Below, piece by piece: positions 24,230 to 64,000 of a DNA stretch of 64,000 nucleotides. How positions within the stretch are numbered: position 1 is the stretch's first letter; each line of letters opens with the position of its first letter. A model generated the notes under the pieces. It was given only the letters and a program-made list of their open reading frames with translations, was not told where the DNA came from and made no database searches. Location: assembly GCA_965205025.1 (NCBI GenBank), contig CBDBFU010000002.1, positions 320,001-384,000 on the forward strand. The letters run 5' to 3'. Both the position numbers and the translations under genes were made by a program. The DNA comes from Candidatus Poribacteria bacterium. Lineage in GTDB: Bacteria; Poribacteria; WGA-4E; WGA-3G.

Positions 24230-27211
24230 ATGAAACACACCGATGTTGAACTGATCCAATACACCCTTGCTGGTGATGAAACCGCTTTCGCAGAACTTGT
24301 GAAAAGGCATCAAAAGCCTGTTCATACATTGGCTTGGCGTAAAATCGGGGATTTTCAGATCGCTGAAGAAATTACACAGGACACCTTCCTGAAAGTATAT
24401 CAAAGATTGCACACCCTGAAAGACCCAAACCAGTTTTCTGGTTGGCTTTATGTGATTGCGACACGCCGTTGCTACGCTTGGCTCCGCAAAAAACGGATAC
24501 GTACCGATCCGTTGGAGGATGTAGATACCACAATGATACACAAAGATGCTTATTCACACCATGTCATAGAAGACAGGAGAAATTCTGCTATTGATGCGCA
24601 CCGCGAAGCCGTCAAAAAACTCCTCGCAAAGCTGAAAGAGAGTGAACGGACTGTGATGACGCTCCACTATCTCGGTGAAATGACTGTTGAGGAGATAAGC
24701 AAGTTTATTGGGGTGTCCGCGGGGACAATCAAGAGTCGATTGCAACGTGCGCGAAACCGACTCCAAAAGGAGGAAACAATGATTAGAGAAGCACTCGAAC
24801 ATTTCCAAATATCACCAAACCTGACAGATAACATTATGCAAGAGGTACATCGTCTTAAACCTACACCTACCGGGAGTAAACCGCTTATCCCGTGGGCAGT
24901 TGCTGCGTCTACCGCTGTTTTGATTGCATTGATGTTGGGGATAGGAAGTCAACACTTAGCACGTTTCCAGCAACCCTATAATTTGGAAGCACAATCCGAG
25001 ATGTCAGTTGAACTCGTTGAGGCACCTATTGTGCCAATACTTGAGATGGAACCGGATGTACGACGCCAGATTGGAAATACGAATGCTGTTGGTAAGAGTA
25101 ATAGACCGAAACAAAACCCTGATGAGGTATTATTTGCTTCCACACAAGTACAAGGAGAAAATATGTCTAACCAAAAACAACAATGGATTCATGCAAAACG
25201 GGTGAAAGGCGCTCCAGCCATGAACCTGAGCACTACACCTGATGGGGATCTCTATGCTTTCTTAAATTTTCTTTCTGTCTATAGACAATCTAAAGATACA
25301 AATACATGGCAACATCTCTCCAGCATAAACAAACTAAGAACTAATTGGGGAGGCGATCCATCAATAGTGAAGTGGAACAATACTTTGTATTTCAGTATAT
25401 CCAATAATTTTTATTCTTCTACGAATAACGGTGAAACTTGGGATTTACTCTATTCTTGGAAAAACGGAGAAAACGTGTTCCCACTTAACGACTACGAGTT
25501 TCCAATTAAATTCATTATAACAGAGCAAGCTTTTTACCTTGCTTTTAGGAATGGTGTTTTCCAGTCTGATGACAACGGCAAAACATGGAAAAATATTAGC
25601 GTTGGATTGAAGGGAAGATCTGTACATTTTATTAACTCATTTATTAATATCCAGAACACGGTCTTTGTTGGAGCTAACGATGGTTGCTACCGTTACAATG
25701 GTAATGAATGGGAACGCTTGGAATTCCCAAGCAAAGTTTTCAGTGTTGTTTCAACTGCAGCAGATGCGGGGAAACTCTATGTTATGGCGGAGTTGAATTG
25801 GTGGAAAGCCGATCAAGAGTTCAAACGTACTTGGGGAATATTCCGATCAACTGACCTCGGAGATTCATGGGTAGATATTACACCTACACATGCTTGGCAA
25901 TTAGATGGTGATCGTCCAAATTTAGTATTAATTGCTGTAGGTGAAACACTTTTGGCAATGGAGCATGGAATGGTACGTTCGTTGGATAGTGGGGACACAT
26001 GGCTGAGTCCTCAAACACAAGACACATCACCACAAATGGGTAATCTTTCCCCAGTTGCAGTCATGAATGACCAGACTATTTATGTTGGCAGCGGGGACGG
26101 TCTATATTCTTCCACTGATCTCGGTGAATCGTGGCACAAGGCGAACATAAGGCAAAATGGAGGAAGTATATATGATCTTATTGCATTAAAAAAGGCTGAT
26201 AAAGGTCAAACTAACCCTTCGTCGCTCTATGCAATAGTAGAGGGAGAAACAAATTCGTCAAATGACATACAAAAAACAGATGATAGCGGGAATTCTTGGA
26301 AACGCGTCCAAATTGCGAAACCAATGACAGATCCTATCAGAAGGGTAACTCCGGATTTTACCCACATTTTAAAATCAGGGGAAGTTCTTTATGCCAAGGG
26401 AAAGGATGGTATTGGCGATGTTAATAAAGTGTATATACATCGTGTATCCAATGATAGTAAAACGATTGAACGGATTCAAGGGATGCCGACTTTCAGTTCG
26501 GAAGGGTTAGATGATAAGTTTTCTGAAGAAGAAGTTCATGGCGGAACTCAGTTTTTTAAACAGTTGACACAACCGAATTACGAAAAGGGTAGTAAGCCTC
26601 GAAAAAACCTTATAAAGCAAGGGTTACGCGGACCGTTTGCTGTTGATAAAGACACATACTACATTGAATTCAACTTTAAGCTCTTCCGGTGGAAGATGGG
26701 GGATACAGAATTGTATGACACGGAACAGGAAGAAACAATTGAATTGAGTGAGGACACAATAAAGAAAGATCTCAAACTTGCGGTTTCAGGAAACACTGTC
26801 TACGTAGGAAAACGGGATGGACATTTCGTTGTATCGTTTGATAGGGCAACTAATTGGATTGATTTCACACCGGCACTACCATTTGCTGTTAATGACTATA
26901 AACAGATTTTGGTTGCTGGAACTACTGTATATGTAGCAACGGACGCTGGCATGATTACATCTGATGATGGAAGAAGTTGGAATACCATCACCGATGCAGT
27001 AGGAGATAATCTCATAATGGAACACTTAGCAAATGATGGAAATGCATTGTATGGTACTACAGAGAAGTCCGGTATCTATCGCTTAGAAAATGGCAGTTGG
27101 AATCAGATTGTATCTGAAATACCAGACAGTATAACTTCTATGGCTGTTGATGGAAATACCTTATACGTAGGCACACGCAACCAAGGCATGCTTCACTATA
27201 CTTTTGAATAG
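24230..27211 (+). CDS. ECF sigma factor - TM - BNR/Asp-box beta-propeller fusion (#1)
   Basis: sigma2 (AEEITQDTF, FSGWL), sigma4 (GTIKSRLQRAR), TM after KPLIPW, repeated SxDxGxTW motifs. Confidence 0.9.
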   Translation: MKHTDVELIQYTLAGDETAFAELVKRHQKPVHTLAWRKIGDFQIAEEITQDTFLKVYQRLHTLKDPNQFSGWLYVIATRRCYAWLRKKRIRTDPLEDVDTTMIHKDAYSHHVIEDRRNSAIDAHREAVKKLLAKLKESERTVMTLHYLGEMTVEEISKFIGVSAGTIKSRLQRARNRLQKEETMIREALEHFQISPNLTDNIMQEVHRLKPTPTGSKPLIPWAVAASTAVLIALMLGIGSQHLARFQQPYNLEAQSEMSVELVEAPIVPILEMEPDVRRQIGNTNAVGKSNRPKQNPDEVLFASTQVQGENMSNQKQQWIHAKRVKGAPAMNLSTTPDGDLYAFLNFLSVYRQSKDTNTWQHLSSINKLRTNWGGDPSIVKWNNTLYFSISNNFYSSTNNGETWDLLYSWKNGENVFPLNDYEFPIKFIITEQAFYLAFRNGVFQSDDNGKTWKNISVGLKGRSVHFINSFINIQNTVFVGANDGCYRYNGNEWERLEFPSKVFSVVSTAADAGKLYVMAELNWWKADQEFKRTWGIFRSTDLGDSWVDITPTHAWQLDGDRPNLVLIAVGETLLAMEHGMVRSLDSGDTWLSPQTQDTSPQMGNLSPVAVMNDQTIYVGSGDGLYSSTDLGESWHKANIRQNGGSIYDLIALKKADKGQTNPSSLYAIVEGETNSSNDIQKTDDSGNSWKRVQIAKPMTDPIRRVTPDFTHILKSGEVLYAKGKDGIGDVNKVYIHRVSNDSKTIERIQGMPTFSSEGLDDKFSEEEVHGGTQFFKQLTQPNYEKGSKPRKNLIKQGLRGPFAVDKDTYYIEFNFKLFRWKMGDTELYDTEQEETIELSEDTIKKDLKLAVSGNTVYVGKRDGHFVVSFDRATNWIDFTPALPFAVNDYKQILVAGTTVYVATDAGMITSDDGRSWNTITDAVGDNLIMEHLANDGNALYGTTEKSGIYRLENGSWNQIVSEIPDSITSMAVDGNTLYVGTRNQGMLHYTFE

Positions 27212-27305
27212 CATTTAATACCTTCAAGTATTTACATACAAACACTATTTTATGTAACGTGAAGAGGAACTGCATAAGTCCTGATTGAATCTAACTATAA
27301 GCTCT

Positions 27306-28358
27306 TCAGAAGGTAACATCATCTAACCTTGAGGATTTAAGCACTTCCTCAAAAAGCGAGTCAAGTTGAACAAGATCATTGATCTGTCTTACTTTATTAG
27401 CAAAACTGTCGGGAACTTCATTAAACTTATGTTGGCTCAGTCTGATTACAGAGTTCTGCTTCTCCTGAATTATGCCCTGCATCACGCCTTTTTCTATAAG
27501 TAATTCGGCACTTGTCATAACCATATCTTGTACCTCTTTGTCTTGTATATGCGTCTGCATAACTTCTAATAAATCTGTCCGATCTTCCGATGGACGACGA
27601 AAAAATATTAACTGATATAGATACAATAGTACATTCTGATACTGCGATACAGATACTGAATCTAAACTTTGAATATATGCTAATGCCTTATTTAATGCAT
27701 TCCGAATAGTTGATGTGTCAGCATCCTCTTGTTGAATAACCTGCAACAACCATCCTAACGGATTACCTGTTTTCGTTAGATCCCTAACATCCACATCCTT
27801 CACACCGAGGAATAATGTATCAAACTTCGGTACAAATGGCGTAAACAAGGATGGCACTTCCATCGCTGTTGTAAGAGATATAGGCGTCTTCCATTTTTGA
27901 GAACCCGTATAATAAACGATTGGAAGGATTGGACGCAATCGCCATTCACTTCTTGGTATGTCTGATGCCTCTAATTCCCGTCTTTGACCATCCCAAATTT
28001 GACACATATAAAACAATACACGGAATGCCATCATCCGATCAACCGTGGATTGATGTTCTATTAGAATATAGATCAACAATTCTTCAGTGGTTTTTTCACT
28101 TTCGAAAGGAACACTGAAAATCATATCAGATTCTAATTCTTTTAGTGAGTCAGAAATATAACTCCTATTCAGTTCAGTGAGTCTACTAAAATCAAGATAT
28201 TCCACTAATTCACTTGCGACAATCTCCACTAATCCACGCACATTCTCTTTTTCAGTAAATAACCACCGAGCACTCCTATCTGGATAATGTGCTGGAGAGA
28301 TATCAAAAAGACTGCGTATTTCTTGTAATAGTTTATCCTGCTTATCTTCTTCTTTCAG
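27306..28358 (-). CDS. Rpn/YhgA-like (Transposase_31, PD-(D/E)xK) recombination-promoting nuclease; probable CTG start
   Basis: ELESDMIFSV, ILIEHQS, ILPIVYYTG; frame extends upstream to a CTG at 28358 with GGAGG 6 nt before. Confidence 0.8.
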   Translation of the reverse strand: MKEEDKQDKLLQEIRSLFDISPAHYPDRSARWLFTEKENVRGLVEIVASELVEYLDFSRLTELNRSYISDSLKELESDMIFSVPFESEKTTEELLIYILIEHQSTVDRMMAFRVLFYMCQIWDGQRRELEASDIPRSEWRLRPILPIVYYTGSQKWKTPISLTTAMEVPSLFTPFVPKFDTLFLGVKDVDVRDLTKTGNPLGWLLQVIQQEDADTSTIRNALNKALAYIQSLDSVSVSQYQNVLLYLYQLIFFRRPSEDRTDLLEVMQTHIQDKEVQDMVMTSAELLIEKGVMQGIIQEKQNSVIRLSQHKFNEVPDSFANKVRQINDLVQLDSLFEEVLKSSRLDDVTF

Positions 28359-28751: not shown

Positions 28752-28920
28752 ACAGTTTGTGCTACAAAATTGACACATATAGAGACAAATTATTTACATA
28801 CCCTATTGATTTAATAGCCGTAAAGGTGTATCCTTATATAAGTAAAGTATCACTCCGTTCAATTCAACACACTAACGTTTTGCACAATAGCATTCTAATA
28901 AACATTTGAGGTATCTCTTT

Positions 28921-31900
28921 ATGGTAAATCATAAATTATATATCTTCTCAACCGTAACGATCTTTTTCATGTTAGGTGTTTTCATAGGTGTCCTTGAAGC
29001 GGGACAAGCCGATGAGACGATAATTGATGAAGAACAAGCAATTATTCAGGAATTTGTTAAGAAAGCACAAGAATACGTGGAGCTTAATCAGATTAAGGAA
29101 GCAATAGAAATCTACGAGAGAATAGTCATTTCAGACCCAGAAAACCAAGATATTCGATTAGAACTTGCAAGACTCTATAAGGTGACATATCAGTACGAAA
29201 AAGCTATCGGAATTTGGAATGAATTGCTTGAAAGTGAACCACGAAACAGAGAATATCAAGAACAACTATTTAATAGTTTACAGGATGCTGGTAAAAGTAG
29301 TGAAGCGTTTGAACTCGCACAAGCATATAGTAAAACACAACCAGAAGTCGGTTTCTATTATACGCAACTCGCAGGACTCTATGCTGATGAAGATAATATA
29401 GATGCAGCTATAACCAACTATGAAAAAGCAATTGAATTCTCAGACGGTAGTGTAACAACATGTTTCATTCTTGCGAGATTATATTTTCTAAAAGAGGACT
29501 TCAAAGCTTCTGAAAAAGCACTGAAGACCGCTATGCTATACGCATCATCAGAGTGGGAACAGAGTAGAATTCAACAGCAATTGATTAACCTATATCGGCA
29601 TCAAGGAAATATAGCACAGGCGGCACAAAAGGTTGAAAATAATGACATTACATTCGATTTACAGAGAGAATATGCACGACTTCTTTTAACAACAGGGGAA
29701 TTGGAAAAATCTGTAAATGCTTTCAAAAAAGCTCTTGAAATGACCACCGATTCTTATGATATAAATAGGGTTACCGAAGAACTGATCAAGGTATATATTA
29801 AACAAGGTAGAACCGACTTAGCATTGGATTTCTTTGATGCTGAATCATCAAAACATCCCAGAACAGAAATCGCGGAAAGATATTATAGTTCAAACTACGT
29901 TACAGTGGAATTTCATCATGATTACGCACGCGAAATACTCATAAATGCCTATAAAGATCAAGGGGAATTTGAGAGTTTGAGAAACCTCTTCATAGAGAGA
30001 ATTGAAGAGGAAGCAGACAATCCAACTAACTTAGAAATGTTGGCTGATATTTATTGGAACTCCTACCATTATCCTCAAGCAGCTAATACTTACCTTAAAC
30101 TCAGTAAAGCCGAACCTTACAATATACGAAGTTTTTACCTCGCAGCCGCTGCATTCCAGAGTAGTGACGAACCTGATATGGTGAAAAAGGTATTGGCAGA
30201 AGCGGATAACGCTCTTGCAACCAGTCAATATAGGAATGATTGGTTATACATCGGTTCTCTTGCCACAATATGTCGGGACAGAAATTTGTATGACCACGCA
30301 ATAAAACTCTCTAATGAGGCTATTAACATATTAAAGGAATCGGAAAACGAATGGACTCTCAGGTATATGTACGAAATACTTGCCAAGATTTATCTTGATG
30401 TCAAACGTTATGAGGATGCTTTTTTAGCAATATCATGAAATGGCGAATGCTACAACAAACAGCTATACGCGACAAAGAGCAGCAAGAGGAATGAGAGAAA
30501 TCGCTAAAGTTGCAAATGTATATGAAAAATTGATACCAGAGCAACTTAGACAGCTTCAGCAAAATCCTAACGATCCCGATCTAATCCTAAAACTCGCTGA
30601 AAGCTACCAATTATCTAATAAATATAATGAAGCAGTTGAACAATATGAAAAACTCACTATGCTCCAACCTGACGAATCTCAGTGGTACAAGCATTTAGGG
30701 GACCTGTATCAACACGTTGCGATAGAGAAAAATAACACAGACGAAGTAATTGAAGATACGGCACTTTCTCTCGGGGGAAATCTGAGTTATGTTGAAATCA
30801 AAGACAGTGAAACTATAGACAATACTACCCAACAGTTAACTGTGTCAACATGGGTAAAACCTACCGTTTTTCCGAATAGATATACCCCAATAATTTTTAA
30901 AGGTGATGAATGGGATGACAACTTTGAAAAACGCAGTTATCTCCTTAATCTTATGGACACTGGTGCCATTCAATTTTCTGCCTCTCCAGCAATGACACCT
31001 GATGTTTCTATCTATTCCCCTGCCGGATCCGTCAAACTCAACACATGGACACATATTGCAGGTGTCATTGATACAAAAAACGACCTTCAAAAGCTATTTA
31101 TTAACGGTGTTGAAGTAAGTCGTAGTCATTTCAAAGGAAAGGCCAGTATTCATAAAAGCCGTCTACCCCTTCGTATCGGATGGACACATGAGGCAGACCA
31201 TCCTTGGCACGCATCTTTTATTGGACAAATTGATGATGTACGGGTTTGGAACATTGCACGTACTGAATCCGAAATTCAATCTGATATGAACACTCAACTC
31301 AAGGGAGATGAGGACGGCTTAGTCGGATATTGGAAATTTAATGAAATAATCGAAGAAAAAATAGCAGATGTTTCACCTAATAGAAATGTTGGTAATACCG
31401 TTGGAAATGTAAAACTTGAACAGTATACACGACCAATTATAAAGTCATTACAGAAGGGAACAGATGGCAAAATCTATTGAGGCTTATGAAAAGGCGATCA
31501 CACTTGAGCCTACTTTGTATGAACACTATGACTTGTTAGCACAATCCTTTGCAAGAAGTGGACACACTTCAGAAGGCTGAAAGCCGTATATCGACGCACA
31601 TTGGACACACCTCTAAAACAGTATGAGTACGATTCAGCAATCATGGCTATTTCTAACCTTTATTCTGACGAGAGCCAAGAAAATAAACGACTCGCTTTGC
31701 TTGAAGAAATAAAACCGAAAATGGAAAATAGTGCTACACTTCATATTCTCTTAGGTGACCTGTATAAAAAAGCAGATGAAACCGAAAAGGCAGAACAGCA
31801 TTATGCTGAATGGTTGAAAATACGGGAGAGAGAACTTAACAACGAACAGGAAGCAAGGGTATTACACGATTTTGCTGAAGAACTCCTTGATAAAGAACTC

Positions 31901-33396
31901 TTTCCAGAAACTGCCTTAAAATTTGCTAAACGTGCATTCCATAAAAACACCGGTTCAGATTATATCTATTCAGATACAATCGGACAAGCGTGTATGGCAA
32001 ACGGGTCATTTGGTGAAGCACTCAAGTATTACAGTTATGCGATAGGCAGTAAATCCTCTGTATATGCATCGGAAAGAGTTTGGAAAAAAATTATTGAGGA
32101 AGGAAAGAAATACAAAGAGGATGAACAGTTCATATACATGCTTGATGTCTTACTCGATTCTATCCCTCAGGTAGAAATTAGTAATCGGGCAAATGCACAC
32201 CGTATGATCGCACAATTCTATGGCAAGCAAGGGATGCAATGAAAAATCAGAATACTATACTTTAAAAGGTGGGTTCATCCCTGAAAATCGATGGTTAATT
32301 TTGGGACCATTTGAAAGTATATTTGGATTCGGTCATTCAAACGCATATATCCCTGAAGAGGTGACACAGATTGACACAACAGCAAAATACTATGGTAAGA
32401 ATGAACTTATAAGTTGGGAAAAATCAAACATATCAGTTGTTAGATGGAAGTTATTATATTCACGGTAACAATGATTCAAGCGCTGCATATTTTTGGGCTA
32501 CTGTTATCTCCCCTGATGAACGGGATGTTAATATTCGGTTTGACAGTGACGATATGGGAACCATTTGGTTAAACGGGAAACAGATTTTTAAACATGACAG
32601 AGCCAGTGGTACGCAACTTGATCGGTATACCATACCTTGTACACTAAAGCAGGGAGAAAACACAATCTTACTCAAAGTATGCCAATCAACACAAAGTTGG
32701 GAATTCTACTTCCGCTTTACAGATGCAGACGGTATTCCGTTTAAAGATCTCAAATATAAAACAGCAGATGAGTTGTTGATCGCTACACCTCCTGAACCTA
32801 CATTTCATCTGAATAGTATGCTTGGTATGATTGAATATTATAGTAAAAACGACATGCAGGATAAAGCGATGGCACTGATCCAACAAACTGGACTTATTCA
32901 TGAACATTTCTGGCTAACTCTCGGACCGTTCGATAACACAGAAGGGATTGCATACAATACAGAGTATATCCCCGAAAACACACCGAATATTGACATGACT
33001 GCAGAATATGAAGGCGTAAACGGACAGATAAGTTGGGAAAAATTTACGGATGCTGTGTTCGACGGTTTTATTGATTTCGGAAAAGATATTAATTGGTCTG
33101 CTTCCTACGCATTGGCAACTGTAACCTCCCCTGATGCACGAGAAGTCCAATTCCGAGTCGGAAATGATGACCAAGCGAAAATATGGTTAAATGGCAAACA
33201 AGTGTATGCTAACACAATTGAAGGATGGGCAATTGTTGACAACAACATTTTTCCTGTCAAACTCAAAGCAGGTAAAAACACTATCCTTATCAAGGTGTGT
33301 AATGCGAAACGTGAATGGGGATTCTATCTAAGGATTACGGATACTGATGGAAAACCATTTAGCGATTTGACTTTTGACACTTTTCAGGATAATTAA
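28921..33396 (+). CDS. Large secreted TPR + LamG/concanavalin + duplicated beta-sandwich protein, split into 5 ORFs by probable +1 errors
   Basis: Signal peptide, many TPRs, LamG (WTHIAGV, FIGQIDDVRVWN, GLVGYWKF), two WLxLGPF...DD..IWLNG...WGFY domains; frames rejoin on removing single bases. Confidence 0.75.
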
Positions 33397-33627
33397 ATCA
33401 TGTTCTGTATATTCCCACCGAAAAATATTGCTTATATACTAAACTTTAGATTTAATCAGACACTTTACTTGTAGGAGCGACCTCCCGGTCGCGACCAGGG
33501 AGGTCGCTCCTACAGAAGAAGGTGGGACGCAAACATAAGATGTATACATTCCCGTCCAAACAGAAATCTAATTCTGCCTACATTCCTCCGCATAACAATA
33601 ATCTGAAATATAATCCTCCTTATGTAA

Positions 33628-33741: not shown

Positions 33742-33821
33742 TAAATATGTACCATCATTAAATTTATGCACCAGTTTAACTCAGTGACTCGCGGTCACTA
33801 TAGAGTAATCTGAGGTAATCC

Positions 33822-36775: not shown

Positions 36776-36793
36776 CATTTAGACATAATTCAG

Positions 36794-36817
36794 TGGACGG
36801 TGTACCAGCACCGTCCA
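36794..36817 (+). terminator. Hairpin after ECF #2
   Basis: TGGACGGTG-taccag-CACCGTCCA; weak U-tract. Confidence 0.45.
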
Positions 36818-49007: not shown

Positions 49008-49513
49008 AGAAACTACGATCCCTGTAATATTTCTCTTTTCTGATCACGTGTTTGTTATTCTTAAGATGTATTGAAAGTGTCTACAATTGATGGCAATTTT
49101 CACAATCATAAATAGCGAAAACTATCAATCAATTATTACTTCCATTTCACTTTATTCCATATATTTCCCACCGCGGTTTCTCACCTCAAATAGACCTTAC
49201 ATCTTGACAAACCCGACTGATTTAGTAGAATAGTATTTCAATGTTTCCGACCAATCCTATCTAACCATTCTTACTTTTAGATAATCATCAATATTCTGTT
49301 ATTGTATTTATGGTATAATTCAACCTTCAGAAATAAATCGTACACATTTAAGACCTTCCCTTCTATCAATAATTAACCTTTTACTCGAATGATATATTAA
49401 CCTCCTTATATCAGCATGTTTTATTTTGCAGAATTACGCGACCATTTTACACCTATCATGCGTCACTATAGTTTGATATGACATTAATCAATTTATAGTT
49501 TCGGAGGTATCTG

Positions 49514-53811: not shown

Positions 53812-54086
53812 GAAATAAACTATTAGTAACACTAATCAACTGATAATTCTTTAAACTAAATAACCCAACCAAAATACGTAAGTCTGTATATGTTGATAAA
53901 TTGATGATATAATTCTATTCAAGGAATCAATCATACAGACTCTGTTCGTACCTTCTCGTTATCTGTAAAATTCATAATCCGTATAATCAGATAGTGTCCT
54001 CCTATATGTAAACCTGTTCCATTTTCAAATTTATGCACCAGTTTACCCTCAAATTTGCGTCACTATAGGGTAATCTGAGGATATTC

Positions 54087-57000
54087 ATGAAAACCACTGA
54101 TATTGATCTCATCCACCGCATTCTTGATGGCGATGATACTGCTTTCACAGAACTTGTGGAGAAATACCAAAAACCAGTTCATGCACTTGTGTGGCGTAAG
54201 ATTGGGGATTTCCATATTGCCGAGGAAATTACCCAGGATACATTTCTAAAGGTTTATCAGGAATTGAAGACACTGAAGAAACCACACAGTTTTGCAAGTT
54301 GGCTTTATGTAATTGCTGCAAACAACTGCAGTACGTGGCTACGTAATAAGCGTCAAATGCCAGAGTCGTTTGAGGATACAAACACCACACAATTGGAAAA
54401 ACCAACCTATTCGAGGTATGTCATCTCGGAAAAAGAACGAATAGCAATAGAATCGCAGCGTGAAGTCGTGGAAAAATTGCTTGCAAAACTTCAGGAAAGT
54501 GAACGTACAGTCATCACACTACACTATTTTGGTGAGATGTCAAGTGCGGAAATCGGAGCGTTCTTAGGTGTATCTGCAAATACGGTAAGAAGTCGTCTCC
54601 GACGCGCACAACAACGCCTAAAAAAGGAGGAAACAATGATTAGAGAAGCACTCGAACATTTTCAAATATCACCTAACTTGACTGATAATATCATAAAGAA
54701 AATTTCTCGAACAAAACAGGTCATACCGACATCTGGAAAACCAGTTATCCCATGGGCAATAGGGGCATCAAGTATTGTTTTTATTGTGTTACTATTGGGA
54801 TTCGGAAGCCAATACTTAGCACGTTTTCAGATACCCTATAGCCTGGATGCACAGACTGAAATGACGGTTGAACTTGTTGACGCTCCCGTTGTGCTAAATC
54901 TTGAGACGAGGTCAGATGCACGTCGTCAGTTTGGAAATCCAAATGCACTTGGTACAAGTGAAAATAACGGTCAGAAACCAGATGAGGTTTTATTAGCTGC
55001 TGCAGAGCCAGAAGGAGAAACCGTTTCTGTTCCCAAACAGCAGTGGATTCAGTCTGAAGCCATCAAAGGAAGTCGTGCTACAAGTTTGCACGCGACACCT
55101 GAAGGAGATCTCTACGTTTATGATTTTGATTTTCATAATAATATCTATAAATTACCTGCTAATGGAACAATGTGGCAATCTATCTCAGAAAATATCCGTT
55201 TGGATACTGTTTGGAGCATATCTCCAGCTATTACAAAATGGAATGATACACTCTATTTTATGCCAACGAACAAACTCTTTGCTTCAAAAGATGAAGGTAA
55301 AACCTGGAATTTACTTCATTCGTGGCAAGAGGGACATGGAGCAATCGAATTTGTACAAATGGAACAGGTTCTTTACGTTGCGTTTGAAAATGGAATCTTT
55401 AAATCAGAAGATGCTGGCAAGTCTTGGAATGCAATACACGATGAGAAAATCGAGTATATTGATTCACTGATCAATATCCAAAACACTTTATTTGTCCAAG
55501 CTTATAATAAACTCTACCGTTTGGAGGATGATAAATGGCAACTTCTTGAATTTCCAGTACCCGTCAGGAGGATTTTGTCAGTTGCAGTTTCTGAAGATAA
55601 GCTTTATGTTGCGGTATTCTTCAATTGGGAGGAAGCGAATGTAGATAGAGAAAAAATGGAACAGGGACTGGTACGTGGTTGGTGGATATACCGTTCAACG
55701 GACCTTGGCAACTCATGGCAAGATATAACACCGACAAACGCTTGGAACATAAAAGGATGGCCTCCCTATCCCAAAATGATTGCTACTGGTGAAACACTAC
55801 TCGTAATGGAACGGGGTATGGTGCGTTCTACCGATGGCGGGGCCACATGGATGCCACCACAACCACCGGACACCTCTCCGTTTATGCGGGATGATAATAA
55901 TGCTGTAGCATTAAATGAAAACACCTTTTATGTCAGTAGCGATGACGGTCTCTATCGTTCCACTGATGGCGGCAGTTCGTGGGAAATGGTAAAAGTTCCT
56001 CTGGATAAGACGAGGAGGATATTTTACAACCTAATCACTTCAGAAGGGAGCAAAAAAGGACAGAACAAACAAAATACTCTCTATGGGATAGTTGAAGTTT
56101 GGAAAATAACAAAAACTACTGACAATGGCAAGACTTGGAAGGACGTTAAAGTTGATCTGCCTATGACAAAACAACTTACAGAACCCATACCACATTTTAT
56201 CCAAATTGTTCCTTCCGGAAATGCAGTCTATGCCAAAGGTGGATCTGTTGGCGGAGGGAAAATGCGCCACTACAAAGTATCTAAAGATGGATATACATTG
56301 GTACCTATTCAAGACATGCCTGCCTTCAACTCGATTGAATTAAGAATGCATCTACATCAAGTACAAGACCTTTCTATTGAAGCGCTACAAGACAGTTTTT
56401 CAGGGGCGACTCAATTCTTCAAACAGATGCTCCAGCTACCTCCACAACTTCGGACAAAACTTGAAGAACTTGGATTACTTGGGCCTTTTGCAGTCAGTGG
56501 TGATACATTCTATTCGGAATATAACTTTAAGCTCTTCAGATGGGAACCCAGTAATACTGAATGGTACGACACTGGACAGGAAGAAACTACTGAATTGTCC
56601 TTGGACATATTTAAACCCCACTTCATCATTCCCAAACTTGCAGTATTAGGCGACACTGTCTACTACGGAAAGCGGGACGGCAGCCTTGTCGTATCGTTTG
56701 ATAGGGGAGACAATTGGATTGACCTCACACCGGGACTACCGTTTAAGGTGAAAACTTTCAAAGGGATCGTATTTGCTGGTACTACAGTGTACGTAGCGAC
56801 GAACGCAGGCATCATTACATCAGATGATGGAAAAGCTTGGAAAGTCGTCACTGACTCTGATGGAACCAATGTTATCATGGAGCATTTGGCAGCCGACGGT
56901 ACAACGCTATATGGCATCACCAAGAAAACAGCAGTATATCGTTTGGAAAGTGATAGTGACACTTGGAAACTACTTGATTCAGAGATACCTGCCATCCTAT

Positions 57001-57104
57001 ATTACGAGGGAGGGGATATCGTAACTTCTCTCGCTGCAGCTGATAACACGCTATACATAGGTAGTGAAAGAAGCGGTATGCTTCATTTCACTATTGAAAA
57101 ATAA
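54087..57104 (+). CDS. ECF sigma - TM - BNR propeller fusion (#7)
   Basis: sigma4 SANTVRSRLRRA; SxDxGxTW repeats. Confidence 0.9.
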   Translation: MKTTDIDLIHRILDGDDTAFTELVEKYQKPVHALVWRKIGDFHIAEEITQDTFLKVYQELKTLKKPHSFASWLYVIAANNCSTWLRNKRQMPESFEDTNTTQLEKPTYSRYVISEKERIAIESQREVVEKLLAKLQESERTVITLHYFGEMSSAEIGAFLGVSANTVRSRLRRAQQRLKKEETMIREALEHFQISPNLTDNIIKKISRTKQVIPTSGKPVIPWAIGASSIVFIVLLLGFGSQYLARFQIPYSLDAQTEMTVELVDAPVVLNLETRSDARRQFGNPNALGTSENNGQKPDEVLLAAAEPEGETVSVPKQQWIQSEAIKGSRATSLHATPEGDLYVYDFDFHNNIYKLPANGTMWQSISENIRLDTVWSISPAITKWNDTLYFMPTNKLFASKDEGKTWNLLHSWQEGHGAIEFVQMEQVLYVAFENGIFKSEDAGKSWNAIHDEKIEYIDSLINIQNTLFVQAYNKLYRLEDDKWQLLEFPVPVRRILSVAVSEDKLYVAVFFNWEEANVDREKMEQGLVRGWWIYRSTDLGNSWQDITPTNAWNIKGWPPYPKMIATGETLLVMERGMVRSTDGGATWMPPQPPDTSPFMRDDNNAVALNENTFYVSSDDGLYRSTDGGSSWEMVKVPLDKTRRIFYNLITSEGSKKGQNKQNTLYGIVEVWKITKTTDNGKTWKDVKVDLPMTKQLTEPIPHFIQIVPSGNAVYAKGGSVGGGKMRHYKVSKDGYTLVPIQDMPAFNSIELRMHLHQVQDLSIEALQDSFSGATQFFKQMLQLPPQLRTKLEELGLLGPFAVSGDTFYSEYNFKLFRWEPSNTEWYDTGQEETTELSLDIFKPHFIIPKLAVLGDTVYYGKRDGSLVVSFDRGDNWIDLTPGLPFKVKTFKGIVFAGTTVYVATNAGIITSDDGKAWKVVTDSDGTNVIMEHLAADGTTLYGITKKTAVYRLESDSDTWKLLDSEIPAILYYEGGDIVTSLAAADNTLYIGSERSGMLHFTIEK

Positions 57105-57232: not shown

Positions 57233-57358
57233 TCTTTATCCTTCTCTCTTTCCTTCCAAATTCTCATAATGCAGAATTATGCAACCGTTTTACAGCTAAT
57301 TTGCGTCATAATAGTCTGATATGTATTTGATCAAACTATCGCCTAATGGAGATACCTT

Positions 57359-60097
57359 GTGAAAAACGACGATGTTGCGCTTATCAGAAAGATACTCAAC
57401 GGTGATGAAATCGCATTTGCAAAACTCGTGAAAAAATATCAAAAGGCAGTACATACGCTTGCTTGGCGAAAAATTGGAGACTTCCACATTGCAGAGGACA
57501 TCACCCAAGATGTCTTTCTAAAAGTGTATCAGAGACTCCACAGCCTGAAAGATCCAAATCAATTTTCTGGGTGGCTCTATGTAGTTACAACAAACCTTTG
57601 TAACACATGGTTCCGCAAAAATCGGATTCAAACCCAGCCGATGGAAAACGTTGAGACAACCAAGATAGAAAAAGACGCATATTCACGACATATCGCAGAA
57701 GAGCGAGTTAAGACCACTATTGAGGCACAACGTGAAGTAGTCAAGAAACTCCTCGCGAAGTTGAAAGAGAGTGAACGCACAGTCATGACGCTCCATTACC
57801 TCGGTGAGATGTCAGTCGAAGACATCAGCAAGTTCATAGGGGTATCTTCTGGAACGATAAAGAGCCGACTTCAACGAGCGCGCAACCGTCTTAAGAAGGA
57901 GGAAACAATGATCAGAGAAGCACTCGAACATTTCCAAATATCCCCTACCCTGACTGATAATATTATGAAGGAAATTTCTCGAACAAAACAAGTTACACCA
58001 ACATCTGGAAAACCAATTATCCCTTGGGCAATAGGGGCATCAAGTGTTATTTTTATTGTGTTACTATTGGGATTCGGAAGCCAATATTTAGGATTATTCC
58101 AGAAACCTTATAGTTTGGTAGCACAAACCGAAACCACAGTGGAACTTGTTGATGCACAAGTAATCCAAAATCTTGATGCAAATCCAAGTGTGCTAAATCA
58201 ACTCAATCAACAGAATTCGGATAGAGATGGCAGAGAAAATGCTGATGATGAGAAATCAAATCAAACATCAGGTGATATAGGAGACTATACCCGATGGAAT
58301 TTACCGGAAGGTGCTAAAACCCGAATCGGAAAAGGCAGAATCTATGACATTGCGTATTCGCCGGATGGCACGCGTCTGGCTGTAGCAAGTTCGATCGGGG
58401 TATGGCTCTATGATGCAAACAGTGGAAAAGAACTTAACCTGTTAACAGAGCATACGGACAAGGTCTTGAGCATAGCATTCAATCTTAATGGAAACATACT
58501 GGCAAGTGGAAGTGATGATGGCAGCATAGACTTGTGGGATACACGCACCAGTAAACATCTTCGGACAATGACAGAGGATACGTCCTTGATCACGAACGTG
58601 GTCTTTAGTGGGGATGGCAAAATGTTGGCAAGTGCAAATAAGGATAACACTATTCGACTGTGGGATACACAGTCAGGCAAAATCCGAAAGACTCTTAAGG
58701 GGCATGCAGATAAGATCTTCAGTATATGGCTCAGTTGGGATGCCAAAATGTTGGAAAGTGCGAGTAAGGATAACACTATTCAACTGTGGGATACACAGTC
58801 AGGCAAAATCCGAAAAACCCTCAACCTTGAGCATTCACAGGAAATTGACAGAATGGCGTTCAGCGCGGATGGCAAAACATTGGCGAGTTGGTGTATTGAA
58901 AGCCCAATTTATCTATGGAATGCACAAACAGGTGAGGTTCGCCATACTCTCCCGTTAGAACAAATGGATATTGTCAATGAATTTGCATTCAGTCCAGATG
59001 GAAAAACGATCGCAAGTGCTATGCACAGCGGCACCGTCCATCTGTGGAATGTACAGACAGGTGAACACCTTCGAAGCCTCATAGGGCATACGCACTGGGC
59101 ATTGAACGTGGTGTTCAGTCCTGATAGCAAAACACTCGCAAGTGGGAGTTTCGATAATACTATCCGTTTTTGGGAGGTCCAGACGGGAAAAACACAAAAA
59201 ACGCTCACAGGACATTTGAGCGATACCGTGCATGTAGCGTTTAGTCCAGATGGAAAAACACTTGCAAATGCAATGGAAGATGATACCATCCGTTTATGGA
59301 ATGCACAGACAGGAGAAGTTCGCCAAATTCTCAAAAGGCAAAATATGCCTTCAATCGCGGGTGTAGCGTTCAGTCCAGATGGAAAAACACTTGTAGGTGG
59401 CACAGATGGAAGTGATTCTTACGCCATTCGTCTGTGGGATATACAAACAGGCAAAATTCACAAAACTTTCGGTGGACATACGGATTATGTTACGAGCGTG
59501 GCATTCAGTCCAGATGGTACTTTGTTAGTAAGTGGAAGTTGGGATAAGACCATCCAGCTGTATCATGCGCAGACAGGAGAACTCCTCAAAACTTTCTCAG
59601 GACATACGGATTGGGTTATGAGTGTGGCGTTCAGTCCAGATAGAAAAATGATAGCAAGTGGGAGTAAGGATAACACCGTCCGTATATGGGATGTGCAAAC
59701 AAGTGAAGTCCTTAAAACCCTAACAGGACATGCGGGTGTAGTCTTTAGCGTGGCGTTCGCCCCCAACGGCAAAACACTCGCAAGTGGGAGTCATGATGGT
59801 CTCATCCATCTGTGGGATGTGCAAACAGGTGAAATCCTTGAAACCACAGAACATACAGATTGGGTTATGAGCGTGGCATTCAGTCCAGATAGCCGAACGC
59901 TCGCAAGTGGAAGCAAGGATAGCACCATTCAACTGTGGGATACACAGACAAATATAACCCAACAAATTCCCATGGGTCATACGAGCTGGGTTACAAGCGT
60001 GGCATTCAGTTCAGATGGCAGGACGCTCGCAAGTGGAAGTAAAGACGGCACTATCCTGTTGTGGGAACATAAACCTAAGACAATCCAGCAAAAGTAA
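57359..60097 (+). CDS. ECF sigma - TM - WD40 fusion (#8)
   Basis: GTG start; sigma4 GTIKSRLQRAR; highly regular GH...VAFSPDG..LASGS.D.TI.LWD repeats. Confidence 0.9.
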   Translation: MKNDDVALIRKILNGDEIAFAKLVKKYQKAVHTLAWRKIGDFHIAEDITQDVFLKVYQRLHSLKDPNQFSGWLYVVTTNLCNTWFRKNRIQTQPMENVETTKIEKDAYSRHIAEERVKTTIEAQREVVKKLLAKLKESERTVMTLHYLGEMSVEDISKFIGVSSGTIKSRLQRARNRLKKEETMIREALEHFQISPTLTDNIMKEISRTKQVTPTSGKPIIPWAIGASSVIFIVLLLGFGSQYLGLFQKPYSLVAQTETTVELVDAQVIQNLDANPSVLNQLNQQNSDRDGRENADDEKSNQTSGDIGDYTRWNLPEGAKTRIGKGRIYDIAYSPDGTRLAVASSIGVWLYDANSGKELNLLTEHTDKVLSIAFNLNGNILASGSDDGSIDLWDTRTSKHLRTMTEDTSLITNVVFSGDGKMLASANKDNTIRLWDTQSGKIRKTLKGHADKIFSIWLSWDAKMLESASKDNTIQLWDTQSGKIRKTLNLEHSQEIDRMAFSADGKTLASWCIESPIYLWNAQTGEVRHTLPLEQMDIVNEFAFSPDGKTIASAMHSGTVHLWNVQTGEHLRSLIGHTHWALNVVFSPDSKTLASGSFDNTIRFWEVQTGKTQKTLTGHLSDTVHVAFSPDGKTLANAMEDDTIRLWNAQTGEVRQILKRQNMPSIAGVAFSPDGKTLVGGTDGSDSYAIRLWDIQTGKIHKTFGGHTDYVTSVAFSPDGTLLVSGSWDKTIQLYHAQTGELLKTFSGHTDWVMSVAFSPDRKMIASGSKDNTVRIWDVQTSEVLKTLTGHAGVVFSVAFAPNGKTLASGSHDGLIHLWDVQTGEILETTEHTDWVMSVAFSPDSRTLASGSKDSTIQLWDTQTNITQQIPMGHTSWVTSVAFSSDGRTLASGSKDGTILLWEHKPKTIQQK

Positions 60098-60389: not shown

Positions 60390-63300
60390 ATGAATAACAA
60401 CGATGATGTTCTCATTCAACGTGTCCTTGATGGCGATGATACGGCATTCTCCGATCTCGTCCGAAAATATCAAAGGTCCGTTCACGCATTGGCGTGGCGA
60501 AAGATAGGAGATTTCCATATCGCCGAAGATATTACACAAGATACGTTCCTGAAAGCATATCAAAAACTCTCAACACTAAAGGAACCTCAACGTTTCTTAA
60601 GTTGGCTCTATGTCATAGCAACAAACCGTTGTAAAGCATGGCTGCGTAAGAAAAATCTGTGGACACAACCGTTTGACAAAGTAAGTAGTTCAGAATCTGA
60701 GAAAGCAACATATTCTGGACATATCATAGAAGAAAACAAGAAAATGGCTATGGAGACACAACGAGAGGTTGTTCAAAAACTACTTGAAAAGTTACAAGAG
60801 AGTGACCGGACAGTCATCACACTCTACTACCTTGGGGGAATGACATACGAGGAAATAAGCGAGTTTTTAGGTGTATCAATAGGAGCAATTAAAAGCCGAC
60901 TTCACCGAGCAAGACAACGTCTTAAGAAGGAAGAAACGATGATTAGAGAAGCACTCGAACATTTCCAAATATCACCTACCCTGACTGATAATATTATGCA
61001 AGAAATTTCTCGGACGAAACAGGTCGCACCAACAACTGGAAAACCACTTATCCCGTGGATAGTTGGTGTGACTGCAGTAACAATAGTGCTGCTGATGCTC
61101 GGTTTTAGCAACCAATTCTTGTCACGTTTCCAGAAGCCTTACAACTTCAATGCGGCTTCAGAGATGAAGGTTGAATTAATTGATACTCCGATTGTACAAA
61201 ACCTTGAATCTGATCCAGATGACCGAACGCAGTTAGGAAATGTTAATGCACAAGGAAAAAACAACGGATCCGATCAGCAAATCAATAATGCCGCTCCGGT
61301 TGATTTGGAGACAATTATTACAAAGATGAAACACTTTGAGAATTTCGTTGCATCTGTAACCGGTGATTTCGTCAGGGAAATGCATATAGATGGTGATTTC
61401 GTCAGGGAAATGCCTATAGAAGGAAGGCATATAGAAACAGACAAGAAAGATGAATATAGCTTGACGTTTGAGGGTGAGAAAGTCAGGGTTGAATGGAAAA
61501 AACGGAGTGCTATGAATTTACCACTCGTTGAGTATTGGGATGGAAAACAACAGTGGGGGGTAAACAGACCTGACAATTTTCTTTTTAAGGTCGAGATTAC
61601 CCCTAACAAGAAAAATACTGTCCTTGAGAAAATTCAACAAGCGTTCAAACAGGTAGGGATTAAAATAACCGGTGATGTCCATATCGTCCCTGGTGATTTA
61701 GCCAATAGTTATAAAGTCAGTGAAAGAGATAAAACATACTTTGTCTTATTCATAGGAGACACAACCCTGAAGGTTTATGGTAGCGATGTTAGATATACAG
61801 TTCGACCTAACTGGATGAATGCCGATCGTGATCCACGGCTATGGCTTACCTTCTCATATTCTGACACTCACGATTCCTATCTATCTGAACCGCTTTGGCA
61901 TTTACTTGAGAAATTTGATAGTGAAATTATAGGAAGCGAAGTACTAAACGGAGAATTAACCTCCGTTATTCGTCTTAGTATACCTAATCGGCCCACTGCA
62001 AAACTCTGGATTTCTCACAACATTGGTTTCCGCATGGTTAAATCAGAAGAGAAAATGTTTGCTGCGGAAGACCCGAAAGCGGGGGCAACTTTTATTATAA
62101 CTCGAGAAATTGATTACCACGAATATTTACCGAACGTCTGGTTTCCCAAGAGAATTGAGAGAACTATTGCTCTAGTGAAATTACCGAATCCACAGCAGCA
62201 AGGGGCGAATATGATATCTAAAACCATTCTTCGCACGAAGCAATGTAAGGTAAATACCGATGTAAGTAGATTACTCCGTTTAAACCTATCTACAGATACA
62301 CGTGTTTTCGATTACAAGGTTAATCACAAGCACACGATCGACGATCTTGAAGTCAAACCAAATTTCCAGATGCAGCTTGCTAATTCCAATTTAGCAAACA
62401 ATAACAGGGCAACCGAACAACATATATCTGATTCTACCTCCCCAAAGACGTTGAAATGGAACCTGCCTGAAGGTGCTAAAGCGCGTATCGGTAAAGGATG
62501 GATAGATAAAATTGAGTATTCCCCAGATGGTAGGCTTCTGGCGGTTGTGAGTTCTATAGGGATATGGCTTTATGATGCACACACTGGACAAGAGCTTGAT
62601 TTGCTCATGGCTCATACCGAACGAGTTCAGTCAATGGCATTCAGTCCAGATGGAAAAACCCTCGTTAGCGGTAACTCAGATAGCACTATTCACCTATGGG
62701 ACACACAAACCCATACACTACGAAAAACCTTCAAGGGACATACGAAGCCGGTGTTAAGCGTGGTTTTCAGTTCTGATGGAACTTCACTGGCAAGCGGGAG
62801 TAAAGATAACACCATCTGTCTGTGGGATGTGCAAACCGGTAAACTCCAAAAAACGCTGAAAGGACATACGAATGCTGTCTTAAGTGTGATGTTTGATCCC
62901 AAGGGGGAAACTTTGGCAAGCGGAGGTAAGGATAACACCTTCCGACTATGGGATGTAGAAACAGGAACTCTCAAGGAAACGAATCTCGTTGAGAGTGCGG
63001 AGATAAGGAGAATGCGGTTCAGTCCCGATGGAAAGACACTTGCTGCTTGGGATTGGGGAACTATCCATCTGTGGGACGTAGGGACTGGTGTAATTGACAA
63101 AACACTCAATAGACACGAAAGGGGCGTTGTCTATGACATAGCGTTCAATCCAGATGGAAAAACATTCGCAAGTGCAATGGGCAACGGTACCGTTAGTCTA
63201 TGGCATACACAAACAGGGGAACAGCACAGAATCCTCATGGGACATAAGGACTTTGTATTGAGCGTAGCATTCAGTCCAGACGGAAAAACACTCACAAGTG

Positions 63301-64000
63301 GAGGGTTTGACGGCACCCTCCGTTGGTGGGATTTGGAAACGGGTGAATGCCGCAATACCCGCACGGAACATTACAGTAGTATTTTTAATGTATCCTACAA
63401 TCCAGACGGGAAAACAATCGCAAGTACGATAAGTAATGACACAATCAGTTTGTGGAACGCACAAACTGGTATACTTCTTCATACTCTTAAAATACTACAT
63501 ACAGATTCTGATTCAATCAACAGTATTTCATTTAGTCCGGACGGAAAAATGTTAGCAGGTGGAGGCTATGGAAGAGAAATCCATCTATGGGATGTGGAGA
63601 CAGGTGAACGCCAAAATACACTTAAAGGACATGATACCATCGGGAGTGTGGCATTCAACGCTGCCGGGAAAATACTTGCGAGTGCGAGTTGGGATACTAA
63701 CACCATCCGTTTGTTGGATACAGAAACAGGAACAATCCGTCATACCTTTGAAGAACATACGGATGTGGTTAATAGCGTGGTGTTTAGTCCAGATGGAAAG
63801 ACGCTGGTAAGTGGTAGTGAGGATAAGACTATTCGTCTATGGGATACACAAACAGGGAAACTACGCAAAACGCTAACAGAACATAAGGACGAAGTGACAA
63901 GCGTAGCCTACAATCCTAATGGAGAAACAATCGCAAGTGGAAGTAAAGATAAGACTGTCCGTCTATGGGATGCACAAACAGGGAAACTACGCAAAAAACT
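60390..64000 (+). CDS. ECF sigma - TM - LolA-like - WD40 fusion (#9), runs off window end (absent from ORF track)
   Basis: GAGGT RBS, MNNNDDVLIQRVLDGDD..., sigma4 GAIKSRLHRAR; the WD40 cap LKWNLPEGAKARIGKG at 62451 is in the same frame. Confidence 0.88.
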   Translation, partial: MNNNDDVLIQRVLDGDDTAFSDLVRKYQRSVHALAWRKIGDFHIAEDITQDTFLKAYQKLSTLKEPQRFLSWLYVIATNRCKAWLRKKNLWTQPFDKVSSSESEKATYSGHIIEENKKMAMETQREVVQKLLEKLQESDRTVITLYYLGGMTYEEISEFLGVSIGAIKSRLHRARQRLKKEETMIREALEHFQISPTLTDNIMQEISRTKQVAPTTGKPLIPWIVGVTAVTIVLLMLGFSNQFLSRFQKPYNFNAASEMKVELIDTPIVQNLESDPDDRTQLGNVNAQGKNNGSDQQINNAAPVDLETIITKMKHFENFVASVTGDFVREMHIDGDFVREMPIEGRHIETDKKDEYSLTFEGEKVRVEWKKRSAMNLPLVEYWDGKQQWGVNRPDNFLFKVEITPNKKNTVLEKIQQAFKQVGIKITGDVHIVPGDLANSYKVSERDKTYFVLFIGDTTLKVYGSDVRYTVRPNWMNADRDPRLWLTFSYSDTHDSYLSEPLWHLLEKFDSEIIGSEVLNGELTSVIRLSIPNRPTAKLWISHNIGFRMVKSEEKMFAAEDPKAGATFIITREIDYHEYLPNVWFPKRIERTIALVKLPNPQQQGANMISKTILRTKQCKVNTDVSRLLRLNLSTDTRVFDYKVNHKHTIDDLEVKPNFQMQLANSNLANNNRATEQHISDSTSPKTLKWNLPEGAKARIGKGWIDKIEYSPDGRLLAVVSSIGIWLYDAHTGQELDLLMAHTERVQSMAFSPDGKTLVSGNSDSTIHLWDTQTHTLRKTFKGHTKPVLSVVFSSDGTSLASGSKDNTICLWDVQTGKLQKTLKGHTNAVLSVMFDPKGETLASGGKDNTFRLWDVETGTLKETNLVESAEIRRMRFSPDGKTLAAWDWGTIHLWDVGTGVIDKTLNRHERGVVYDIAFNPDGKTFASAMGNGTVSLWHTQTGEQHRILMGHKDFVLSVAFSPDGKTLTSGGFDGTLRWWDLETGECRNTRTEHYSSIFNVSYNPDGKTIASTISNDTISLWNAQTGILLHTLKILHTDSDSINSISFSPDGKMLAGGGYGREIHLWDVETGERQNTLKGHDTIGSVAFNAAGKILASASWDTNTIRLLDTETGTIRHTFEEHTDVVNSVVFSPDGKTLVSGSEDKTIRLWDTQTGKLRKTLTEHKDEVTSVAYNPNGETIASGSKDKTVRLWDAQTGKLRKK

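Follow-up and report, generated by a model that had tools for sequence, protein, structure and literature searches.

Sigma factors of the extracytoplasmic function (ECF) type that carry fused extensions have been called the one-component systems of the sigma-factor world, and few of them have been studied. The older 'ECF01-Gob' group of Planctomycetes comprises ECFs whose C-terminal extensions are rich in WD40-like repeats; in cellulolytic clostridia, many paralogous units of a sigma factor and a membrane sensor, SigI/RsgI, carry carbohydrate-binding or glycoside-hydrolase-like outward domains and are autoregulated. Here we describe an array of nine ECF sigma/sensor fusion genes in a 64,000-nucleotide stretch (the window, by which we mean its full length) of contig CBDBFU010000002.1 from the Candidatus Poribacteria assembly GCA_965205025.1. 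The array region, 24230 to 64000 and beyond, was analysed from the listing of its open reading frames (ORFs) and their translations. We are highly confident that these genes encode ECF sigma/sensor fusions forming a diversified repertoire; that they are, as a whole, self-inducing one-component transmembrane ECF receptors, likely activated by intramembrane proteolysis, is a reading whose chances we judge to be evenly balanced.

As described in the passages of PMC8999054 drawn on here, ECF57 has a long C-terminal extension with WD40-like repeats, together with two conserved cysteines proposed to link sigma2 to sigma4; IutY of Pseudomonas putida (ECF243) is a sigma/anti-sigma hybrid released by Prc and RseP, whose truncated form is constitutively active; and SCO4117 of ECF52, grouped here with ECF48/53 of Actinobacteria, has a fused transmembrane extension with an extracytoplasmic carbohydrate-binding end and a ZAS-like zinc finger, for which proteolytic activation has been proposed. 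The nine genes to be compared with them are the following (aa, amino acids):

Gene #1, 24230..27211 (+): 993 aa; ECF sigma, linker, transmembrane helix, GH74-like BNR propellers
Gene #2, 33822..36775 (+): BNR class; three ORFs as written, 983 aa without the extra bases at 35100 and 35559
Gene #3, 37227..40142 (+): 971 aa; ECF sigma, linker, transmembrane helix, WD40
Gene #4, 40619..44065 (+): ECF sigma, linker, transmembrane helix, two probable LolA-fold modules; 1147 aa once its frame is mended
Gene #5, 46080..49007 (+): 975 aa; ECF sigma, linker, transmembrane helix, WD40
Gene #6, 49514..52609 (+): 1031 aa; ECF sigma, linker, transmembrane helix, BNR/GH74-like
Gene #7, 54087..57104 (+): 1005 aa; ECF sigma, linker, transmembrane helix, BNR/GH74-like; N-terminal cassette modelled
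Gene #8, 57359..60097 (+): 912 aa, GTG start; ECF sigma, linker, transmembrane helix, WD40
Gene #9, 60390..64000 (+), running past the window end: 1285 aa in the genome; ECF sigma, linker, transmembrane helix, probable LolA-fold module (about residues 296-700), WD40

With ECF57, as portrayed in those passages, the array family shares an ECF core with a long WD40-type extension and no separate anti-sigma factor. The likeness is partial, the WD40 extension being found in #3, 5, 8 and 9 but not in the BNR class (#1, 2, 6 and 7) or in #4. An earlier note on this DNA had pointed to ECF57-like proteins of Planctomycetes, a comparison that we take as a resemblance in the WD40 extension rather than a sign of membership: compared by description, ECF57 has two conserved cysteines, whereas in 76 aligned cassettes of the family the only near-invariant (at least 90%) cysteine is C81, and none is conserved in sigma4. 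The family further differs from ECF57 in its own linker-transmembrane-juxtamembrane module, its three interchangeable sensor classes, its 10-50 copies per genome and its poribacterial host. IutY, in the account given there, unites an ECF sigma at its N-terminus, a membrane-spanning segment and a sensing part outside the cytoplasm in a single chain that is activated by regulated intramembrane proteolysis, and we adopt it as our mechanistic model; it differs in being FecI/FecR-like, in working with a TonB-dependent receptor and in being a single gene rather than a repertoire. No FecR or other anti-sigma Pfam domain was found in #1, 2, 4, 6 and 7, nor among the matches listed for the WD40 proteins. 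Like ECF52/48/53 as sketched in the same source, the array proteins join an ECF to a fused transmembrane extension and an extracytoplasmic domain. The zinc-finger anti-sigma domain, however, is theirs: the linker of the array family has no Cys/His motif in its consensus and no zf-HC2 match.

For the GH74-like class the closest functional analogy is SigI/RsgI, in which, unlike here, the sigma factor (SigI, which is no ECF) and its anti-sigma are encoded by different genes and the hosts are Firmicutes. RseA-RseB and MucA-MucB would resemble the members with the LolA-like module in placing a LolA-fold periplasmic module on a sigma-control pathway, and the module model matches RseB/MucB with E 1.5e-4 to 9e-4; but RseB is a separate protein, its TM-score to the module model is low (0.18-0.25), and the best matches are LolA/LolB/DUF1329. 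The family is thus of a known kind, an ECF with a fused regulatory extension, and is set apart by its own juxtamembrane module, three swappable sensor classes, 10-50 copies per genome and cassette recombination.

The shared cassette, its sensors and its spread

All nine genes begin with a common N-terminal cassette of about 270 residues. In every one of them residue 184, at a distance of 549 bp from the start, is the EETMIRE-box methionine, as the earlier note had it for the equal sigma cassette of nine co-oriented paralogs; KPxIPW of the membrane segment stands at residue 217/218 and [F/Y]QxPY[S/N]x, the motif behind it, at 246/247 in 9/9, both also reported in that note. At the nucleotide level, eight in-register copies of a 300-nt repeat were detected in the array, a pattern far beyond chance. 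Pfam recognizes Sigma70_r2 and Sigma70_r4_2 in the N-termini of #1, 2, 4, 6 and 7 (E 1e-12 to 1e-17); for #3, 5, 8 and 9 the Pfam matches listed are filled by WD40 families, and the sigma parts were shown by alignment, in #8 also by NCBIfam. The ECF superfamily model TIGR02937 scores 101-105 bits (cut-off 42.9) in all three cassettes scanned with NCBIfam, and no NCBIfam subfamily or equivalog model reached its cut-off there, the superfamily model alone passing. As an example, the cassette of gene #7 is made up as follows (pLDDT, the per-residue confidence of AlphaFold2):

54153..54620 (+): sigma2 (residues 23-89) and sigma4 (126-178), by Pfam; AlphaFold2 helices with pLDDT 85-94
54630..54725 (+): conserved, putatively cytoplasmic linker (EETMIREALEHFQISPNLTDNI...); predicted helices 182-190 and 198-211
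54738..54821 (+): KPxIPW and the sole hydrophobic helix; Kyte-Doolittle 2.29 over 220-238, AlphaFold2 helix 226-245 of low confidence
54825..54902 (+): juxtamembrane motif FQxPYSLDAxxExxVELVDAPxV, from the alignment

The AlphaFold2 model of this cassette has a mean pLDDT of 70, with sigma2 and sigma4 confident and followed by two linker helices; searched with Foldseek it matches SigW, AlgU, sigmaE and CnrH. The conserved linker between sigma4 and the hydrophobic helix measures 40 aa.

The repertoire of one-helix sigma/sensor fusions proposed in the earlier note extends well beyond the array. The 5.66-Mb genome holds 48 cassette loci (minimum identity 44%, minimum ORF length 300 aa), two of them downstream of the array on the same contig and five upstream on the opposite strand; 41 of the 48 have one strongly hydrophobic 19-residue window (Kyte-Doolittle 1.85-2.57) at residues 213-242. 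Cassette matches (E at most 1e-30) occur in 23 of 24 other genomes of the genus (g1), with 9-50 in each and 24-39 in single-contig genomes. In a sample of the phylum, the profile of the linker-transmembrane-juxtamembrane module matches 86 of 101 genomes, distributed by family as listed:

Family f1: 64 of 66 genomes; tens of copies in genera g1 and g9
Family f2: 5 of 7 genomes; 1-5 copies
Family f3: 16 of 18 genomes; 1-5 copies

None of the three genomes of family f4, and none of the six from the other families and classes sampled, matches this profile. Among 1.84 billion cluster representatives only 285 match the module, which together with its spread in the phylum indicates a lineage-specific invention expanded in one family. 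Publicly, proteins of the family are named only 'RNA polymerase sigma factor' or 'hypothetical protein'. In about 108 of 150 listed representatives (hand count) the module starts near residue 181, the others being mostly short fragments. A stand-alone anti-sigma factor as the ancestor of the module was considered and rejected: no clear free-standing homolog emerged, and the sigma-less proteins P0017, P0031, P0068 and P0094 begin at differing points. A further sigma-less copy, at C2:282229-284800 (+) (numbers of this form denote contigs of the genome), is 857 aa long, opens at the hinge methionine (MIREAL...) and continues with the transmembrane helix and WD40; stop codons lie just upstream. 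This copy arose by a 5' deletion or else is a sensor that stands alone, and like the four proteins just named it may represent a cut gene call or a 5' deletion.

The sensors fall where the earlier note had put them, its LolA-like guess probably included. Pfam detects Sortilin-Vps10/BNR in #1, 6 and 7 as well as in the last ORF of #2, and WD40 in #3, 5, 8 and 9. A profile built from 15 BNR-class domains matches GH74 xyloglucanases over partial stretches (2cn2/2cn3, E 5e-20, with 4.7e-20 for 2cn2; 4lgn, 2ebs and others), while a search of the PDB with the single BNR-domain sequence of #1 returned no match. The module of #9, for which neither Pfam nor NCBIfam gave a match, was modelled by AlphaFold2 with pLDDT 73.8 (four other models reached 48-59); with Foldseek it matches the LolA superfamily (3buu, E 4.6e-8, TM-score 0.53-0.58; probability 1.0, with a TM-score of only 0.5-0.58 on the target side), and #4 carries two copies of the same module. 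The genome has 96 WD40 loci, 25 in sigma fusions and 71 outside them; loci of the GH74-like BNR type of the array lie in sigma fusions in 18 of 19 cases. Stand-alone WD40 proteins of about 665-720 aa, often in tandem arrays (examples at C28:124546, C20:123821, C20:125898 and C24:60122), share the entry motif W-x-LPEGA-x-ARLGRG with the sigma-fused WD40 sensors.

Promoter motif and recombination of cassettes with sensors

Screening by k-mers of the regions upstream of the 48 loci yielded TTATGCA[A/C]CC and CGCGTCA, and a position weight matrix (PWM) was trained on these regions. The two elements form one bipartite motif, TTATGCA[A/C]CC-N14-15-GCGTCA, which is placed mostly 56-82 nt before the start codon and reaches at least 17 bits in 36 of the 48 family loci. 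Genome-wide, 52 sites score at least 19 bits, vs 3 in reversed or complemented controls; 34 of them are upstream of family genes, and among the remaining 18 are sites at genes for a MoxR-like ATPase, an ABC ATPase and small membrane proteins. With 'AAC' in its -35 element and 'CGT' in its -10 element the motif fits the general ECF promoter pattern. In all nine array genes the best site lies within 150 nt upstream, for example:

Gene #1, 24151..24184 (+): TTATGCAACC-N15-CGCGTCATA, PWM score 28.4
Gene #2, 33764..33799 (+): as written, a spacer of 17 and the -10 element GCGGTCACT
Gene #6, 49434..49467 (+): TTACGCGACC-N15-TGCGTCACT, score 22.9
Gene #7, 54031..54064 (+): TTATGCACCA-N15-TGCGTCACT, score 25.7
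Gene #8, 57277..57310 (+): TTATGCAACC-N15-TGCGTCATA, score 28.1

For gene #2, contigs of other sequencing runs are a base shorter at 33784 and again at 33793; this would give CGCGTCACT, a spacer of 15 and a consensus -10 element. Near-identical repeated promoter-like sites, TTTTGCACCT-N16-TGGGTCATT, are also present at C32:50395-52081 (-) and C29:23108-23327 (+), with no clear ORF downstream.

The -35 element varies along with the recognition helix of sigma4. Helices reading 'RL-R-RA' are paired with TGCACC in 9 of 10 cases and those with N/Q/S/T with TGCAAC in 9 of 9, and the Y clade (#3, 4 and 5) is paired with a TGAGAC-type element. Taken together, these data lend good, though partly circular, sequence-based support to autoregulation with partly separate specificities, and positive autoregulation of family members appears likely. 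Two points count against this part of the reading. The PWM was trained and scored on the same upstream regions, a circularity from which only the genome-wide control and the fixed position of the motif are independent; and the covariation of sigma4 with the -35 element is not significant, as it comes down to 2 independent pairs on supported branches (p 0.5), or 6 on all branches.

Selection and divergence are distributed unevenly over the proteins, as seen from the identities between window genes and from the ratios of nonsynonymous to synonymous substitution rates (dN/dS):

Sigma: identity 54-77%; dN/dS 0.11-0.21
Linker-transmembrane part: identity 55-85%; dN/dS 0.06-0.26 (one pair 0.71)
Sensor, same class: identity 36-53%; dN/dS 0.24-0.39
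Sensor, across classes: identity about 23%

A tree of the sigma parts alone implies 8-9 changes of sensor class, at least 4-5 of them forced by well-supported branches, and the neighbours C2:393698 (WD40) and C2:397327 (BNR) have near-identical sigma domains. In several gene pairs dS is 5-30 times lower in sigma than in the sensor (for example, 0.063 vs 2.06), from which it follows that cassettes moved, or were converted, between old sensors. Sigma cassettes and sensors have repeatedly recombined in this family.

Topology, activation and rival readings

According to the reading that we favour, each gene would encode a self-contained transmembrane signalling protein, with a cytoplasmic ECF sigma, a two-helix linker and one membrane helix, beyond which an extracytoplasmic stalk would hold a ligand-binding domain (a pair of GH74-like BNR propellers, a WD40 propeller or a LolA-fold module, alone or combined). 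As long as it is tethered, sigma would be shielded from RNA polymerase or locked in a closed form. Signals perceived by the sensor would lead to a cut near the conserved juxtamembrane motif, serving as first-cut or docking site, and the RseP-type protease of the genome would then cut within the membrane. The freed sigma would transcribe from TTATGCA[A/C]CC-N14-15-GCGTCA, found in front of nearly every member, and thereby induce its own gene; with -35 variants following those of the sigma4 recognition helix, the paralogs would probably act as partly insulated channels. The family would have grown by duplication and by repeated recombination of sigma cassettes with sensor modules in sponge-associated Poribacteria, and its role is probably the sensing of host or matrix glycans and proteins.

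The topology, the sequestration, the proteolytic release and the ligands in this scheme are ours to infer. Regulated intramembrane proteolysis, with the juxtamembrane motif as first-cut or docking site, is proposed by analogy and somewhat tentatively. It is favoured because the genome has a gene for an RseP-type site-2 protease (Peptidase_M50, 213 bits, in a 586-aa frame at C7:217266-218873), because its six zf-HC2 (ZAS) anti-sigmas all adjoin canonical ECFs outside the array, and because IutY and SCO4117 provide precedents, proposed ones in the case of SCO4117. No anti-sigma or protease domain was found by Pfam in the ORFs between the array genes, in agreement with the earlier note.

Several observations pull the other way. 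An extracytoplasmic (periplasmic) sensor and a cytoplasmic sigma are suggested by a hydropathy scale and by the logic of the architecture only, and the flanking charges give only a weak positive-inside bias; for the surface-sensing system of the earlier note, 'surface' is too strong a word. The BNR and LolA-fold sensor types are usually extracytoplasmic. Nevertheless, 7 of the 48 family loci have no membrane helix, and helix-less paralogs join the sigma core directly to WD40 or BNR:

L110, C26:93613-96228: sigma-WD40 fusion, no membrane helix
L112, C28:108165-110672: sigma-WD40 fusion, no membrane helix
L095, C12:177750-180518: sigma-BNR fusion, no membrane helix

The junction of L110 is conserved in full in 10 of 24 other genomes of the genus. 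These fusions imply that the same sensor classes also work in the cytoplasm, and 5/5 stand-alone WD40 relatives examined have no N-terminal hydrophobic stretch. The model of the #7 cassette superposes best on closed sigmas bound to anti-sigmas, CnrH-CnrY (4cxf; root-mean-square deviation 4.1, target-side TM-score 0.74) and SigW-RsiW, vs a deviation of about 27 for sigmas bound to RNA polymerase; since AlphaFold often models free ECFs closed, this is weak evidence. A modelled complex of the #7 sigma core (1-181) with its linker (182-222) scored 0.02, was run without controls and counts neither way. Finally, no cleavage, release or expression has been observed, and among the sequencing runs searched there was no RNA run holding the locus.

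The strongest rival holds that sigma is never released, and acts either while tethered, in the manner of ToxR/CadC, or by a conformational change through the linker, which would be a minimal intramolecular anti-sigma. That the linker is as conserved as sigma, with two short helices beside sigma4, speaks for it, as do the best superposition of the closed model on CnrH with its short anti-sigma CnrY and the conserved paralogs without a transmembrane helix, which demonstrate that the family can be controlled with no step at the membrane; WD40-bearing ECF57 is moreover filed under 'protein interaction', not proteolysis, in the passages of PMC8999054 used here. On the other hand, a sigma factor must join RNA polymerase on DNA, and an ECF that stays tethered for good is without precedent in those passages. 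Beyond the membrane, the juxtamembrane motif is kept in every sensor class, as would be expected of a place for processing or docking more than of a passive tether. All considered, we regard this explanation as unlikely.

Less probable by far is that the main work of these proteins is binding or catalysis outside the cytoplasm, in contact with the host or in breaking down glycans (as 'eukaryote-like' WD40 proteins or GH74-like hydrolases), and that their sigma part is a relic serving only as cytoplasmic anchor. The abundance of WD40 and GH74 proteins in Poribacteria has been so read, in the parts of PMC3909097 and PMC6081418 relied on, and the near confinement of the array's BNR type to sigma fusions (18/19 loci) could be taken in the same sense. 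However, the strongest purifying selection in the protein falls on sigma (dN/dS 0.11-0.21), the length of sigma is fixed at 183 codons, and an ECF-type promoter lies upstream with a -35 element that tracks sigma4.

The array in its genome and in Poribacteria

That misassembly produced the array, by collapsing paralogs (a doubt raised in the earlier note) or by joining them into chimeras, or that it is a decaying pseudogene cluster, can be practically dismissed: frameshifts in 2 of the 9 genes as written and the breaking of short-read contigs inside the region would suit it, but copies that are 54-77% identical in sigma and 36-53% within a sensor class are too different to have been collapsed, 24-39 matches occur in each single-contig genome of the genus and are often arrayed similarly, and the frameshifts lie where homopolymers begin and do not recur in the contigs of other runs.

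The window letters contain two frame changes in #2 (35100 and 35559) and three in #4 (42009, 42226 and 42459). Contigs of four public runs were compared with window positions 33000-45999; no one contig spans this region, and two of the runs (X3 and X4, from two other studies) have uncovered bins. At each of the five sites, which are all the first base of a homopolymer, contigs of other runs (X2, X3 and X4) have one base fewer, those of X2 being otherwise identical to the window. Overall, single extra bases at homopolymer starts relative to the other runs are found at 33784, 33793, 35100, 35559, 40298, 42009, 42226 and 42459. Because of the homopolymer-start positions and the absence of the extra bases from the other runs' contigs, we read the frameshifts of #2 and #4 as probable indel errors of assembly. 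The same contigs restore frames of 983 and 1147 aa, the latter to be compared with 1115-1150 aa in intact relatives of #4, and a pseudogene reading of the two genes was rejected on these grounds. It follows that other truncated genes or paralogs in this genome may also be artefacts of homopolymer indels.

The genes of the array are interspersed with the following:

27306..28241 (-): YhgA-like putative transposase (Transposase_31, E 2.3e-25)
28906..33396 (+): four ORFs, with TPR, TPR and Laminin_G_3, TPR, and a galactose-binding-like domain; no sigma fusion; possibly one fragmented gene
44270..45457 (+): IS630-type transposase (DDE_3 and HTH)
52644..53357 (+): 237-aa protein with an N-terminal hydrophobic segment

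The 237-aa membrane protein was considered as a regular partner of the family and rejected, there being only 3 related copies in the genome. Proteins of this type adjoin family genes three times, at window positions 52644-53357, at C2:388387-389097 and at C10:16528-17229, and the C10 copy has the family promoter motif upstream. Transposase-type genes in or beside the array number three, with an IS1595-like one at 5141-5746 (-) in addition to the YhgA-like and IS630/DDE_3 genes listed. An intergenic repeat of about 90-140 nt, 84-98% alike between copies, lies upstream of #2, #3 and #5 (33627-33745, 36844-37106 and 45653-45770). In sponge metagenomes, contigs pile up to very great depth over the bins that contain it, as well as over 45152-45999, and copies are joined to one another at many points; it is probably a multi-copy small repeat element. 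Further upstream, window positions 7780-17935 (-) encode an HATPase_c_3 protein, a GmrSD-type restriction endonuclease, a PAPS_reduct-domain protein, a 1177-aa protein without a Pfam match and a DUF4007 protein, a probable defence island; a second PAPS_reduct gene is at 1456-2274.

In the literature searched, nothing was found that links Poribacteria with ECF or other sigma-factor fusions; supplements and subscription journals lay outside that search, and the fusions may be tabulated there or in the ECF Hub. Kamke 2014 (PMC3909097) reports abundant WD40 'eukaryote-like' proteins in Poribacteria, with the word 'sigma' occurring 0 times in its main text.

A more far-reaching proposal is that the family constitutes a combinatorial repertoire, in which dozens of transmembrane ECF receptors, each with its own -35 specificity and self-inducing promoter, arose as a portable cassette of promoter plus sigma was recombined onto sensors that were already old and diverged. 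We put it forward as a possibility that we think somewhat improbable in its full form. If it is true, many of the proteins counted as 'eukaryote-like WD40 proteins' or 'GH74 hydrolases' would be inputs of a host-sensing network and not effectors or enzymes. With about 10-50 paralogs per genome, three swappable sensors, a recognizable cognate promoter and an apparent co-variation of sigma4 with the -35 element, the family amounts to a natural experiment, through which the insulation of ECFs, their promoter specificity and their activation across the membrane become directly testable. Given that in this genome sigma fusions account for 25 of the 96 WD40 loci and for 18 of the 19 with the GH74-like BNR type, two genomic hallmarks of Poribacteria may be reread as serving the sensing of the host matrix rather than, or besides, its degradation or mimicry.

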